64,000 bases of DNA from Eledone cirrhosa (taxonomy: Eukaryota): positions 305,970,001 through 306,034,000 of the forward strand of contig OZ024742.1 of NCBI GenBank assembly GCA_964016885.1, given 5' to 3'. This document shows positions 1 to 48,135 of this stretch, piece after piece; within the stretch, counting starts at the first letter, position 1; each line of letters begins with the position of its first letter. Made by a program: the position numbers and the translations under genes. Under the pieces are notes generated by a model that made no database searches, had not been told where the DNA came from, and saw nothing but the letters and a program-made list of their open reading frames with translations.

Positions 1-3000
1 CAAGCAGTGAAAAGGATGGAAAAACCGTCCTTCCTCTACGAGAAGTAAGGTAAGTGGTCTTTCCCATCTTTTCCACTCCTTTTCAACATGACCTCACTCA
101 GAATAGGCAGCATAAATGCGCGTGGCTTGGGGTCGTCATGGAAGCAGGGCCACCTGCTCAATGACCTCAGGTCACTAAACATAGATGTAGTGGCCATCAG
201 CGAGACCAGAATCTCCGAAGCACAGGCTTTCGCACCGATCTTCGGCGGCTACGATGTGTACGCATCTCCCAGCCGTCCGGGATCGGGGGGAGGAGTTGCT
301 GTGCTTTTTCGGAGAGGTTTGGATCTTGCCATACGGGCCATCTTCCTGGACCCAGAAGGTAAGTTTGTGGTGCTGGACATGACCAGCGGAGACGGGCAAG
401 CTTTCAGGTTAGTGGCCGTCTATGCCCCGACAGGAGCAGGCGGCCTGATTTCTTCCGGCGTCTGGAGACCTTTCTTGGAACGTCCCGCTCTTTAGTGTTA
501 GTGGGCGACTGGAACGGGATCTTAGATGCACGCTGGGATTGTGTGGGATTAGTGGATAGGGAAGGAGGGTGCAAGAGTCTCACCAACCTGCTCAGACGTT
601 TTGAACTGTCTGACAGGTACCGAATGGATTTCCCGAATGTACCAATGTGGACTTGGACAAATCGCATAGGGTCATCCAGATCATATCTAGATAGAGTATT
701 TTGTAGGGAAATAGATAGGTCTAGCATAGGCTGTCCACAATTCAAGATAGTCAGCTACACGGACCACAAATTCGTGATCTGTGTGCTTGACTTAGATAGG
801 CTTCATAGACGAGGACCCGGCTACTGGAAGCTATAACGCGTCCTTACCAGCGCGCAAGGCCTACAGAGACCGGATTAGCGAACAAGTTAAGCGGGCGTTG
901 ACGGGGGCCATCGTCAACAACAAGTGGTGGTTTGCTCTGAAAAGAGCAATTAGAATAGAGTCCATTAGGTTTAGTAAGACTTTAGCAATAGAGAAAAATA
1001 GAGCAGAGGGAGAATTAGTTAGAAAATTAGATGAGGCGCTTAGCAAAGGCATCGCGACCGACGTACTTGCGGCGAAATTGACCCTTGACCAATTCTTCAA
1101 TGCAAAGCACGAAGGCTGCGTTGTCAGAGCTAGGGTGCGTGCTCTCAGACACGAGGGGACGAAAGCCGTTCAAAGGGCCCGAGTGGCGGAGGTGCGTCGT
1201 GGCAACAAAGCCACGATCCGGTCTTTGGTGGACCACGACGGGCGCATGCTACTCGATTCCGGGCAAATGTGTGAAGCTTTTCAGCGACACTTCGCTCAAC
1301 TGTTCGGGGGCAGTGGCGGGCCGGATCGAGGGATGGACTTTAATGTCTACCTCGACGGACTGCCGCGGCTTTCGGCCACTGAGGCGGAGTGTTGCGAAAA
1401 GCCGATAACAACCGCTGAAGTACGGGATGCAATGACTAGTTGCACAAGGGCTAAATCGCCTGGTTTGGATGGTCTGCCCTATGAATTTACGTACAAATGC
1501 CAAACTTGTTCGGAGGCCTCTTGGCGGACGTCTACTGCAACTGGCAACAGAACGGGAGAATTCCCAGCTCTGTGAGCCGAGGAGCGGTGGCGCTGCTGAG
1601 AAAGGATCCGAACAAGGGGGATAACATAGATAATTTTAGGCCCATAACTCTGCTAAACACAGAGTTCAAGATTTTGCCCAAGGTGCTAGCAAAGAGGTTG
1701 GCGCTTGTCGTTGGTGGTCTGGTGGGAGAGGCACAGACATGCGCCATTCCCGACAGATCCATCCACGACAACCTCCACCTCATGCGATACATCGTAGAGA
1801 GGGTAGCTAGGGAACCTGGCACGGGTGGGTCTTTGATCAATTTAGATCAGTCGAAAGCCTTCGATAGGGTCGACCATCGTTACCTAGCGGCAGTCCTGAG
1901 GGCGGCTGGCTTTGGGCCCGTCTTCAGAGGCTGGATCGCTGCCATGCACAGCGACATCTGCTCTGTAGTGAGAGTCAACGGTCACCTTTCGAAACCGTTC
2001 AACATCATGCGCTCGGTACGCCAAGGATGCCCCATCTCGTCCCTATTGTACGTATTGACTCTCGAGCCATTACTGCACAAACTGGAGACGTTGAGGGGGG
2101 TCCCGCGCGAGCTGGGATGCGGAAGATCCGTGTCAGCATATGCCGACGATGTCACCGTAGTGGTGTCGAACGCCAAACACATCGAGGCGATCGGCACTAC
2201 ACTAAGAGAATACGAAGCGGTGACAGGAGCAATGATCAACCAGGAAAAGTCAGTGGGCCTGCAGCTTGGCACCTGGAGAGGCAGGTCCATGCCGTCCAAC
2301 AGCGTCGTCGGGCGCTGGACGGACGGACCGGTTAAATTGCTAGGGGTCTGGTTCGGTCCAGACCTCCAGACGGACAAAAACTGGGATGGGGTGACGAGCA
2401 GGGTGGCTTCTCTCACCCAGAAATGGGCCGAGAGGAAGCTATCCCTGAAAGGTCGAGCGGAGGTGGCGAATGCGTACATCGCATCCGTCATCTACTACCG
2501 CCTGACCGTCTTACCTTGTCCTAAGCCCCGCCTGACTGCGCTGGAGCGTTTGCTCTTTCGCTTCTTGTGGAAGGGACGCGCTCCGATGGTCAGGCGGTCC
2601 ATCTGCTGTCAACACCCGCTACGTGGAGGGCTGGGCATGCCGTGGCTGATGATGCGCAGACACGCGCTCAGGCTACGACATCTCCACCTCTTCCTCGACG
2701 GTGATCAGGTGTGGTCGCCGTTTGCTAGACACGTTTTTCCCCAGCTCGTCTCCTTGACGGAGCTGCAGTCCTGGGTCAAGCGAAGACGGAGAGGGAGCGC
2801 TTGGAGACTGGAATGTCTTCAGGCGCTCACAGTGGAAACTCCACCTTGGCGTTTTATAGGGGATTAGTGGAGGGGAAGAGCGACGACGTACTTGGAGAAA
2901 CTCTAGGCGTCGACGAAAATCAACTAGCCAATCTCTTCGGAAGGACTTTCGGGCCGGGGCCTATGGACAACTTCCAGAAATCCCTGGCCTGGCAGTGCTA

Positions 3001-3767
3001 CCGGGGTGCTTTGCCAGTTCGGGATAAACTTTACAGGCATGGATGTGCCGTCAGCCGGGCATGTCCGAGATGCGCACAGGGCGACGAAACCGTCCTGCAC
3101 GCACTCGTCCAGTGCCCGAGCATTGCTGACTTGTGGGTTTATGTCGAACACCTGCTGTCACGTGTAGGACGGATCCAGCTATCAGCTGAGTCCATCGTGA
3201 GGATTGCCCCGCCCCCTTCCTTTAGCCGGGAAGGGCAGGCAGTTTTTATCTGTCTGGTGGCCATGGCGAAAGAGATAGTATGGTGGACACGTTTGAAAGG
3301 GCTGAAGACGAGCAGTTACCTCTTCGGTGATGCCCTGATTAACTTTTTCAAACTTCATCTGAAAAGAAAAATCAGGGTAGAGAGGGAAGTGCTCTCTTCC
3401 CAGCATTTTGTTGAAAGATGGGTGAGAGAAGCAAGTATGGCCCGAATGAATGGGCCTTCCCTGAGTATGTGTCTGTAAATTAAAGGTGGAAAACTGGGAG
3501 AGGGCACTTGCCCTGGTGGTCAGGGCCACTGTGGTCTTTTAATGGGCTTTCTCCACAAATGTCCCTAGGAAGTCTCCCCCCTATTGGGGAATTTTTCTTT
3601 GTTATTTTATTTCATCCTCTTTTTTTTTTACACGCAGAAATGCCCATTTGTACCGTCCTGTATTGTCCTGTAGTGTCCTTAATGTCTACTTTATGTAAAC
3701 CCTTGTGGTTAATAAAGAAAACATTATTATTATTATTATTATTATTATTATTATTATTATTATTATT
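1..3767 (+). mobile_element. Tx1/L1-clade non-LTR retrotransposon, copy 1 (subfamily A; 5' part outside window)
   Basis: End of ORF1, APE-RT ORF2, 3'UTR, AATAAA at 3711, (TTA)n tail about 3723-3767. Confidence 0.92.
88..3478 (+). pseudogene. Frameshifted ORF2 (APE + RT + C-terminal Zn finger) of copy 1
   Basis: Motifs across ORF fragments: SINARGL, ISETR, VYAP, GDWN, TDHK, GPGYWKL, PGLDG, RPITLLN, RQGCP, YADD, CPRC..ETVLHALVQC. Confidence 0.92.
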
Positions 3768-46300: not shown

Positions 46301-48135
46301 GCAAGAAGTCCACAATTCGGTATTTGCCTGATCAAAACGGGCGCATGTTGCGAGAACCCGAGCAGATGTGTGCGGCTTTTCAACAACACTTTGCTCAATT
46401 GTTCGGGAGCGGCGGCGAGTCGTATCGGAGTATGGACTTTGGTGCATTCCTCGACGGACTGCGACAACTCTCCATGACCGCAGCGCAGTGCTGCGAAAAG
46501 CCGATAACAGCAGGTGAAATACGGAAAGCGATATCTGACTGCACGAAAGGTAAAGCACCAGGTTTGGATGGTCTGCTCTTCGAGCTTTATGCGTATATAC
46601 CGGACTTGTTCGGCGACCTCTTGGCAGATGTCTACTGCCTCTGGCAGCAGAACGGGAGCATTCCCAGCTTTATGAGCCGGGGAGCGGAGGCGCTTGAGAA
46701 AAGATCCGAACAAGGGGGACGTTATAGACAACTTCAGGCCCATAACTCTGATAAACGCAGAGTTTAAGATTGTGGCCAATGTGTTAAGAAAGAGATTGGC
46801 ACTTGTCGTCGGTAATCTGCTGGGAAAGGCGCATACATGCGCCATTCCGGACAGATCCATCCACGACATACTCCATCTCATAGAAAGGGTGGTTAAGGAA
46901 CTGTGATATGGGAGATTCATGTCAGCTTACGCCGAAGACGTCACCGTGGTGGTGTCGAACAATAAACACATCCAAATTCTCGGCACCGCTCTCAAGGAAT
47001 ACGAATCGGTGACAGGAGAAAAGATAAACCAGGAAAAGTCGGTGGGCTTGCAACTCGGCACCTGGAGAGGCAAGTCCATGCCGTCCGACAGCGTCGTGGG
47101 GCGCTGGACGGAAGGACCGGTTAATTGCTCGGGGTCTGGTTCGGTCCGGACCTCCAGACGGAGAAAAAATGGAGCGTGGTGACGAGCAGGGTGGCCTCTC
47201 TCACCCAGAAATGGTTGGAGAGGAGGCTGTCTCTGAAAGGTCGGGCGGAGGTGGCGTACATCGCGTCCGTCATCTGCTACCGCCTGACCGTCGTACCTTG
47301 CTGCCGCCCAACTCTGATCAAAATGGAGCGCCTGCTCTTCCGCGTTTTGTGTAAGGGACGTGCTACCATGTTCAGATGATCCATTTGATGTCAACACTCG
47401 TTGCGTGGAGGACTAGGCATGCCGTGGCTGATGATGCGCAAACATGCGCTGAGGTTGCGAAACTTCTGGTGCTTCCTTGACGTTGAACAGGTGTTTCTCA
47501 GACTCGCTTTTGCCCAGCTCGTTTCCTTGACGGAGCTGCACTCCTGGATCAGGAAAAGACCGAGGGATAGCACTTGGAAGCTGGAATGCCTTCAAGCGCT
47601 CACTCTACCAACTGGGCACTAGTATCGGTGAAACATCCACCTCGGCGTTCTATAGAGGGCTAGTGGAGGGAAACAGCGACAACGATCTCAGGTAGATCCT
47701 GGACGTCGAAGACGAATAGCTGTTCGCTCTCTTCAAGAGAACTTTCAGCTCGGGGCCTATGACAACTTCCAGAAATCCCTGGTCTGGCAGTGCTACCAGG
47801 GAGCGTTGCCGGTGCGGGATAAGCTCTACGGGCACCGAAGTGCTGTCAGCCGAGCCTGTCCGAGATGCAAGCAGGGCGACGAAACCGTTCTGCACGTACT
47901 CGTTCAGTGCCCGAGGATTGCTGACTTGTGGAGCTATGTCGAATAGCTGCTGTCGTGTGTAGGACGGATCCGATTATCGAGCGAGTCCATTGTGCAGATA
48001 GCCCCGCCACCCTCGTTCAAAGAGGAGGAAGGGCAGGCAGGTTTCATCTTCCTGGTGGCCATGGCGAAAGAGATTGTGTGGTGGACAAGGTTGAAAGGGT
48101 TGAAGACAGACACACCTCTCCGGCCCATCCCTGAT
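43389..48135 (+). mobile_element. Tx1/L1-clade element, copy 7 (subfamily B'), degraded, 3' end missing
   Basis: 5'UTR and ORF1 homologous to copy 4. ORF2 from 45257. Deletions near 44408, 44530 and 46900. Confidence 0.88.
43465..43650 (+). mobile_element. Full-length tRNA-type SINE nested in the copy 7 5'UTR
   Basis: 18-bp TSD aattatttattgttaaat (43447-43464 / 43651-43668). Absent from the sister 5'UTR near 21590. Confidence 0.9.

Follow-up and report, generated by a model that had tools for sequence, protein, structure and literature searches.

The window analyzed here, 64,000 nucleotides of Eledone cirrhosa DNA (contig OZ024742.1, positions 305,970,001 to 306,034,000), holds two arrays (1–26475 and 37000–48141) in which Tx1-like (APE), R4/Dong-like (RLE) and SINE members are linked by (TTA)n tracts as joints. 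Tx1-like LINEs on the plus strand, R4/Dong-like LINEs on the minus strand and the SINE cover 99.0% of the first array, which extends ~8 kb beyond the upstream edge of the window (locus L288), and 99.6% of the second is element-covered. The 10.5 kb between them is covered to 2.8%, so that positions 1–48135, which a first-pass annotation of this DNA had described as a single community of elements, in fact fall into two.

The first array enters the window with ORF2 (APE-RT-zinc finger) and the 3′ end of a Tx1-like LINE (1–3722, +; Pfam, 95% to the ORF2 of L275), the 5′ end of which is seen in L288 to follow (TTA)8 ~2.2 kb upstream of the window. The (TTA)14 tract at 3724–3767 (+) is both its tail and the 5′ flank of a near full-length, frameshifted Tx1-like copy of family A (3768–9623, +; Pfam), which shares a TTA tract (9624–9649, +), tail to tail, with a 5′-truncated R4/Dong-like copy of family A (R4-A) retaining RT, CCHC and RLE (9650–11928, −; Pfam, 89–91% at the amino acid level to protein P0002). 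Next come (TTA)8 (11929–11952, +), which is the tail of R4-B and the 5′ flank of the truncated R4-A, the 5′-truncated copy of R4-like family B itself (11953–13125, −; 40% at the amino acid level to P0002), and a further (TTA)8 (13126–13151, +) that lies head to head between two 5′ ends and is thus the tail of neither element. Beyond it, a Tx1-like copy of family B (13152–16627, +; Pfam) comprises a 5′ end, ORF1, an open APE domain (15502–16284), an internal deletion at 16264/16265 and a 3′ end, and meets, tail to tail across (TTA)15 (16628–16679, +), a 3′ fragment of an older R4-A variant (16680–17041, −). The array continues with (TTA)8, a 5′-truncated SINE and (TTA)3 (17043–17187, +), a near full-length but decayed R4-B with an internal deletion of ~560 bases in its 5′ UTR (17188–21500, −), (TTA)10 placed head to head between the R4-B and Tx1-C 5′ ends (21501–21532, +), and a Tx1-like copy of family C with internal deletions and a TTA tail (21533–26475, +; Pfam).

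The second array consists of an old, family D-like Tx1 3′ fragment (37000–37726, +), a 5′-truncated R4-A (37726–38591, −), a (TTA)5 tract with a truncated 5′ end on either side, head to head (38592–38606, +), a Tx1-like copy of family D that is 5′-truncated in ORF1 and followed by a TTA tract (38607–43388, +; Pfam), and a Tx1-like copy that is close to family C, lacks its 3′ end and carries a full SINE at 43448–43660 (43389–48141, +). Read on the plus strand, 1–48135 contains 13 (TTA)≥3 runs and a single (TAA)≥3 run, at 44895 within a Tx1 A-rich stretch.

Most of the local description in the first-pass annotation holds: each of the ten junction tracts named there lies no more than 3 bases from its stated position, the seven Tx1 copies of 1–48135 are on the plus strand, every R4-like piece is on the minus strand, and R4-A 3′ ends adjoin Tx1 3′ ends at 9650, 16680 and 37726, with no TTA tract remaining at the last. 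The proposed recurrent order of Tx1, R4-A, R4-B and Tx1 is found in two clusters, in the second of which a SINE fragment (17068–17187) separates the R4 copies, but the third cluster has no R4-B. An eighth, 5′-truncated Tx1 copy lies outside this range on the minus strand (54417–55851), within a TAA run where an inverted repeat ends. We considered this copy as an exception to the polarity and rejected it, since it belongs to a sister family with another target: the flanks of this family are usually (TATC)n or (TA)n, and of 29 copies 26 have a TATC or TA tail, while no copy has a TTA or TAA one.

The assignment of the plus-strand elements to Tx1 draws on architecture, RT similarity and target preference. 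Locus L275 has the corresponding two-ORF architecture: ORF1 is open over 713 codons and has one CCHC, and ORF2 (1204 codons) carries Exo_endo_phos, RVT_1 and zf-RVT, that is, an N-terminal APE, RT and a C-terminal zinc finger, and the domain order in P0001 is APE-RT-zf. The RT is nearer to L1 than to R2 (PDB matches to L1 ORF2p at E 3e-50 vs R2 at 4e-21), and a named match is the transposon TX1 149 kDa protein (38%). In a quick tree of 39 rows, containing neither curated Tx1 or L1 references nor Kibi and Koshi sequences, an Argonauta protein joins these families (SH-aLRT 99), and the sampled fish and reptile Tx1-like proteins fall elsewhere. At the Tx1 3′ ends, AATAAA stands ~10 bases ahead of the tract, and there is no genomic poly(A).

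The minus-strand elements were assigned to R4/Dong on architecture and target together. P0002, from L284, is a single open ORF of 1076 codons (one RT motif is shortened in that copy) with RVT_1 followed by CCHC, RHD and PD..D..EK motifs, the motifs being read by eye, and its best PDB matches are R2 proteins; a single ORF with RT, CCHC and a PD..D-type RLE but no APE is the R4/Dong arrangement, and (TAA)n on the sense strand is the R4/Dong type of target. Among 120 relatives listed for the protein, seven of which were looked up individually, no name goes beyond "hypothetical protein". The N-terminal SANT/Myb domain is described as diverged in this clade (PMC7998251), and a Pfam search of P0002 gave no match to it at E 0.01.

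The same junctions recur throughout the 3.0-Gb genome. All 29 full-length family B copies elsewhere have (TTA)≥3 in exact phase at their 5′ flank, and 28 of 29 full-length family A copies have a TTA tract there, above the level of one sequence type in >20% of flanks used to define a Tx1 target preference (PMC4494074). In a tally of 289 loci plus the window, Tx1 junctions carry TTA in 132 of 168 cases and TAA in none, and R4 junctions carry TAA in 179 of 244 and TTA in none, giving no wrong-strand junction among 412. Tracts also occur at 5′-truncated ends (54/69 for R4-A, 25/43 for R4-B and 17/43 for Tx1), where they cannot be encoded by the element; by chance, 0.15–0.16% of random positions would have a (TTA)3 or (TAA)3 that ends no more than ~12 bases away. 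The truncated ends without a tract (26/43 for Tx1, 33/112 for R4), which count against the reading favored below, are in part internal fragments. Because 5′ junctions, truncated ones included, carry the tract, the repeat is a target and not only a tail. The exceptions are one Tx1 tail with a short TAA run preceding its TTA tract (L352, from an evenly spaced background sample whose 99 stretches include 71 from the four largest contigs) and three SINE ends that are reversed or TAA-flanked.

These observations confirm that Tx1 and R4 occupy shared (TTA/TAA)n sites in opposite directions genome-wide, and they dispose of the outcomes named beforehand as fatal to the idea, namely unenriched 5′ flanks and random orientation. 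Nor can local misassembly be the explanation, since the same junction types are present at many unlinked places; public contigs include both families but are interrupted at the tracts, and are uninformative on the junctions of the window locus. On the first 34.6 Mb of contig C1, 14 of 100 Tx1 3′ ends adjoin one of 52 R4-A 3′ ends (0.045 expected), all 14 tail to tail, and polarity is kept in 33 of 38 further pairs within 15 kb. Long tracts less than 25 kb apart are on the same strand in 34 of 40 cases, compared with 26 of 50 at more than 100 kb, and the polarized arrays measure 10–35 kb. The scale is considerable: there are at least 16,285 Tx1 and at least 10,133 R4-A exact-match 3′ ends, the two together make up ~6% of a 990-kb sample, and 27 of 30 long tracts examined, out of 17,332 counted, are element junctions.

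Neither the SINE nor the sister Tx1 family figured in the first-pass annotation, which also left out the published parallels of TRAS/SART and Keno/Utopia discussed below. The SINE, which matches no Rfam family at gathering level, is probably moved by Tx1. The TTA and TATC Tx1 families are 76% identical in RT, and their predicted specificity loops differ little (TNRIGSSRS vs ANRSGSSRS), with two decayed TTA-family copies likewise having A at the first loop position; the endonuclease may thus not be the whole determinant of the target.

Taking these observations into account, we consider it probable that each endonuclease nicks its own strand of the shared microsatellite, and that every insertion ends up with a tract on either side of it. 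Judging from orientation, target-primed reverse transcription would start from a nick in the TAA strand, made by the APE, for Tx1 and from one in the TTA strand, made by the RLE, for R4. The Tx1 junction phase, ATT^ATT, would place the nick at T/A on the other strand, the phase of the TATC sister family (ATCT^ATCT) likewise suggests T/A, and the R4 phase is TAA^TAA. As each insertion would turn one tract into two, occupied sites would gain targets and grow into polarized arrays, while new sites may be seeded by the SINE and other TTA-tailed elements. The earlier proposal of a self-extending array on a shared target is thus supported by 5′ flanks, polarity and independent insertion, while an opposite-strand preference of the endonucleases themselves is a step that we infer, as an RNA tail pairing with the nicked strand would give equal polarity. 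More tentatively, the long (TTA)n tracts may be a mutually built niche, renewed and reoccupied from opposite strands by APE Tx1, RLE Dong and SINE, so that almost all long tracts are junctions of elements, with the same Tx1 lineage split between TTA and TATC with few endonuclease changes.

An alternative origin of the arrays is a Tx1-R4 composite spread as a unit, by 3′ transduction or segmental duplication, or a misassembled locus. The tail-to-tail Tx1/R4-A pair in 14 of 29 young copies and the seven Tx1 5′ ends at ~6.1-kb spacing on contig C4 are what such a unit would produce, but Tx1 and R4 neighbors do not codiverge (a Mantel test on 16 Tx1-B/R4-A pairs gave rho 0.01, p 0.44), each locus has its own R4 truncation point, tract lengths and flanking neighbors on the outer side, and the window Tx1 copies, 68–96% alike, are not duplicates. 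We therefore reject a composite element or duplication, and give this whole group of explanations almost no credence. Where Tx1 copies are within 1% of each other (55 comparisons), their R4-A neighbors are a median of 6.9% apart and never within 1%; conversely, in 6 of 7 pairs a young R4-B stands beside a Tx1 copy 3–9% from its nearest relative, with the age order based on 260–300 bases and on sets chosen by likeness to one query. With no codivergence and either neighbor possibly the younger, growth of the arrays by independent, alternating insertions is supported in both orders, as the first-pass annotation had argued against a simple segmental duplication. We do not claim that Tx1 specially recognizes the R4-A 3′ end: an R4 3′ end is the next neighbor of a young Tx1 in 15 of 29 cases, the corresponding counts being 8 of 30 for long tracts (Fisher p 0.06) and 7 of 67 for tracts of at least four units (p 3e-5), and tract length and purity account for most of the excess.

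It is also very unlikely that there is no targeting, the tracts being self-made tails and the arrays insertions that survived in repeat-rich, gene-poor regions. Many tracts do come from tails, and the best matches are crowded on the four largest contigs, but this yields neither the tracts found where a truncated 5′ end meets unique flanking DNA, nor the head-to-head tracts at 13126, 21501 and 38592, nor the complete lack of wrong-strand junctions. A more serious, though still rather unlikely, alternative keeps the shared target and array growth and lets RNA set the strand: loosely specific nucleases would cut either strand of A/T-rich DNA, and reverse transcription would be primed only from nicks with a 3′ end able to pair with the (UUA)n tail of Tx1 or the (UAA)n tail of R4. 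The lack of genomic poly(A) despite AATAAA suggests that transcripts would keep several UUA units, the predicted loops of the TTA and TATC families are near-identical, and tail–target pairing has been proposed for SART1 and L1 (PMC7265360, PMC1950540). Against this, exact phase at every full-length family B 5′ junction suggests a fixed cut, and in SART/TRAS the endonuclease domains are the primary determinant, endonuclease swaps having shifted specificity (PMC7265360).

In this genome, APE and RLE elements share one renewable interstitial target from opposite strands on a large scale. For Tx1 elements, TTA and TATC are two additional microsatellite targets, both in an invertebrate lineage; the TTA/TATC sister families are a natural pair for testing endonuclease vs RNA tail as setter of strand and target. 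The share of long microsatellites made by retrotransposons in such a genome also becomes testable.

Each ingredient has a published precedent: Dong is known from TAA, Tx1 from other microsatellites, and the sharing of one repeat on opposite strands from TRAS/SART; a literature search, with Repbase outside its scope, found no TTA- or TATC-specific Tx1 and no Tx1/R4 pairing of the present type. TRAS and SART belong to the R1 clade. In the silkworm (TTAGG)n repeat they provide two LINE families inserting in opposite directions into one simple repeat (PMC7265360), as here, but both are APE elements of one group at telomeres, whereas one APE and one RLE class meet here in an interstitial microsatellite at thousands of sites. 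The Tx1 families Kibi in (TC)n, Koshi in (TTC)n and the crocodilian families in (TTCC)n/(TTTC)n (PMC4494074) are likewise APE-encoding LINEs within a microsatellite, with the repeat on both flanks; the targets here are instead (TTA)n and (TATC)n, with flanks of TTA or TATC/TA and not (TC)n or (TTC)n, and the host is an invertebrate. Dong and Rex6, of the R4 clade, share the single ORF, RT, C-terminal RLE and (TAA)n on the sense strand (PMC7998251, PMC1635306), Dong is reported at TAA for the majority of insects, molluscs and cnidarians, and recent activity is described for both Dong-R4 and L1-Tx1 in Octopus vulgaris (PMC13282606), so that the R4 half is ordinary, whereas its interleaving with a TTA-targeting Tx1 was not found described in the portions of these accounts available. 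Finally, Keno (Tx1, APE) and Utopia (RLE) have converged on one U2 snRNA site (PMC4640811), and thus also join the two endonuclease classes at a common target; theirs is a gene site with an identical 3′ flank for both, whereas the repeat described here is occupied by Tx1 and R4 from opposite strands and is renewed by insertion.

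All ten short tracts listed in the first-pass annotation are found in the window, which spans G000:C3:305970001–306034000. When the window is compared with itself, with Pfam and with more complete natural copies, the arrays resolve, with the polarity that annotation had described, into seven Tx1-like copies on the + strand and five R4-like copies on the − strand, plus SINE pieces. The array it had drawn at 1–48135 stands in substance but not as a single stretch, being two arrays at 1–26475 and 37000–48141, of which elements cover 99.0% and 99.6%, respectively; 10.5 kb of other DNA separates them. 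Upstream of the window, the first array runs on for ~8 kb with its polarity unchanged (genomic stretch L288). The tracts at 13126, 21501 and 38592 each lie between two 5′ ends, and thus cannot be the tail of either neighbor. We note that the gap holds two elements with long inverted arms, of 195 bases (31544–31738 and 32309–32503) and 288 bases (34708–34995 and 35503–35789), the arms being 97–99% alike. At 33037–33517 (−), a divergent RLE-type fragment (29% amino acid identity to R4-A) lies behind a SINE tail. After the last Tx1 copy comes an unassigned 163-codon open frame (48149–48860, −).

The clade names Tx1 and R4 are putative assignments based on architecture, nearest matches and target rather than on curated references. 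In Tx1 family B, a natural copy with open frames (L275) is bounded by (TTA)7 and (TTA)12 and encodes ORF1 and an ORF2 with APE, RT and zinc finger; among solved structures it is closest to L1 ORF2p. Among named proteins, the Tx1-like ORF2 is closest to one from Argonauta hians, with 71% identity across the RT region, which makes an octopod host likely. For R4-A, a frame that is naturally open (L284) contains RT, CCHC and RLE motifs, with APE absent from this frame, and its best solved relatives are R2 proteins. R4-B is just 30–45% identical to this frame in protein, despite the R4-A and R4-B 5′ ends being homologous (76% over 465 bases; L280, L284 and window 21394–21500). Several 5′ flanks in the R4-A/R4-B set shade from TAA to GAA repeats. 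At L288:7837 and in L292, L297, L310, L318, L322 and L325, a family-B-like ORF2 (93–95%) is joined to another TTA-flanked Tx1 5′ end and ORF1; this is an ORF1 swap, and the first Tx1 copy of the window is of the same type.

Tx1 and R4 have a common target, used in strictly opposite polarity and with tracts on both sides. Seven DNA searches of the 3.0 Gb genome each provided the best 30 loci, or 29 once the window's own copy was left out. Whether 5′ flanks are enriched in (TTA)n genome-wide, a point raised by the first-pass annotation, can be read from these best loci: at least three TTA units precede the 5′ end of family B in exact phase in 29/29, and a TTA tract precedes that of family A in 28/29 (23 in exact phase). 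At the 3′ ends of the best loci, at least three TTA units are present in 28/29 for Tx1, and at least three TAA units in 28/29 for R4-A and 29/29 for R4-B, with the opposite motif at 0/29 in all four sets for which a count was made. A junction tally that took in 289 loci together with the window (matches of at least 100 bases at ≥82%, merged by identical 60-base context) gave TTA in 132 of 168 Tx1 junctions and TAA in none, and TAA in 179 of 244 R4 junctions and TTA in none. Truncated 5′ ends bear a tract in 54/69 (R4-A), 25/43 (R4-B) and 17/43 (Tx1) cases, against 0.15% by chance, the remainder including internal fragments. From target-primed reverse transcription, the first nicks would be expected on opposite strands, and the choice of strand could be set by the endonuclease or by RNA-tail pairing.

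That the recurring order reflects independent insertions rather than simple segmental duplication, as had been proposed, is borne out by the pairs of adjoining copies. In 16 Tx1-B/R4-A tail-to-tail pairs, there is no co-divergence of partners (Mantel rho 0.01, p 0.44). Tx1 copies that are almost identical have R4-A neighbors 6.9% apart at the median, and those Tx1 copies were thus inserted second, whereas in 6/7 R4-B pairs the R4 copy is nearer to its closest relative than the Tx1 copy is to its own, such that R4 was inserted second there; both sets were chosen by likeness to one query, which favors a young look of the queried family. These pairs show that both insertion orders occur and that Tx1 and R4 insertions are independent.

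Exact patterns count 16,285 Tx1 and 10,133 R4-A 3′ ends genome-wide, and 17,332 tracts of at least 10 pure TTA units with two non-T bases in front. The elements cluster: on contig C1 (0–34.6 Mb), 14 of 100 listed Tx1 ends adjoin an R4-A end, all 14 tail to tail, against 0.045 expected, and 34/52 R4-A ends have a Tx1 end no more than 15 kb away, against 8% expected. Of the 30 long tracts that come first on C1, a consecutive rather than random sample, 27 meet an end of Tx1, R4 or the SINE and one meets a MITE-like pair; the remaining two have no library neighbor. Shorter tracts are less often occupied, with a library neighbor at 30/67 tracts of at least four units when 99 stretches of 10 kb are sampled at even spacing. 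On another contig (G000:C4:222061272–222110576), seven listed Tx1-B 5′ ends spaced at multiples of ~6.1 kb form a head-to-tail tandem array.

By eye, the SINE carries A-box- and B-box-like motifs. Its 3′ ends meet TTA at 25/97 and TAA at none across the 289 loci and the window. Of five Tx1 families, three have 3′ ends that the last 50 bases of the SINE weakly resemble (shuffle p 0.007, 0.02 and 0.001), while the same test shows no such likeness to R4-A and R4-B 3′ ends, and it is plausible that the SINE is mobilized by Tx1. Another LINE 3′ end, CR1/L2-like by eye, terminates in (TTA)n in L064, L300, L301 and L303, and may seed arrays. Within a short repeat that recurs in L247, L261, L262, L320, L338, L344 and L359, (TTA)4 is followed by (TA)n and is occupied by neither Tx1 nor R4.

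The window copy at 54417–55851 (−) belongs to a sister Tx1 family whose DNA identity to family B is 72%. Among the best loci listed, (TATC)n or (TA)n comes next at its 3′ end in 26/29 copies, and TTA or TAA in none of 29; two full-length copies (L286 and L287), recovered from three stretches, are flanked by (TATC)n at either end. The family is young (98–99% alike), and both ORF1 and ORF2 are open in L287. In a quick tree, its sister is a group in which the TTA families are joined by two related proteins, one of them an Argonauta protein (group support SH-aLRT 99). The sister family differs from the TTA families at two places in the stretch that corresponds to the L1 hairpin loop, the role of which is treated in PMC1950540. 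By hand counts of best-scoring candidates, which may be biased, the four largest contigs, which make up 54% of the genome, hold 35, 32 and 34 of 39 best matches in three TTA-type Tx1 sets and 22/39 for the TATC family. A MITE-like 247-base inverted repeat with TAA/TTA runs on its flanks lies at 54078–54428 and 55851–55957, beside a second small repeat, and the same pair recurs at L008, L145, L308 and L343.

In the literature searched, including PMC4640811, PMC4494074, PMC13282606, PMC7998251, PMC7265360, PMC1950540, PMC9115989, PMC3747384 and PMC1635306, we found no published description of a TTA- or TATC-specific Tx1, or of Tx1 and Dong in one microsatellite. An earlier description of these targets or of the pairing may exist, and the supplements of PMC4494074, which list targets, may bear on whether the Tx1 targets are new. 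The sharing of the TTA/TAA target by Tx1 and R4 is real and genome-wide; the arrangement is a variant form of microsatellite-targeted LINEs, and there is a precedent for each of its parts.
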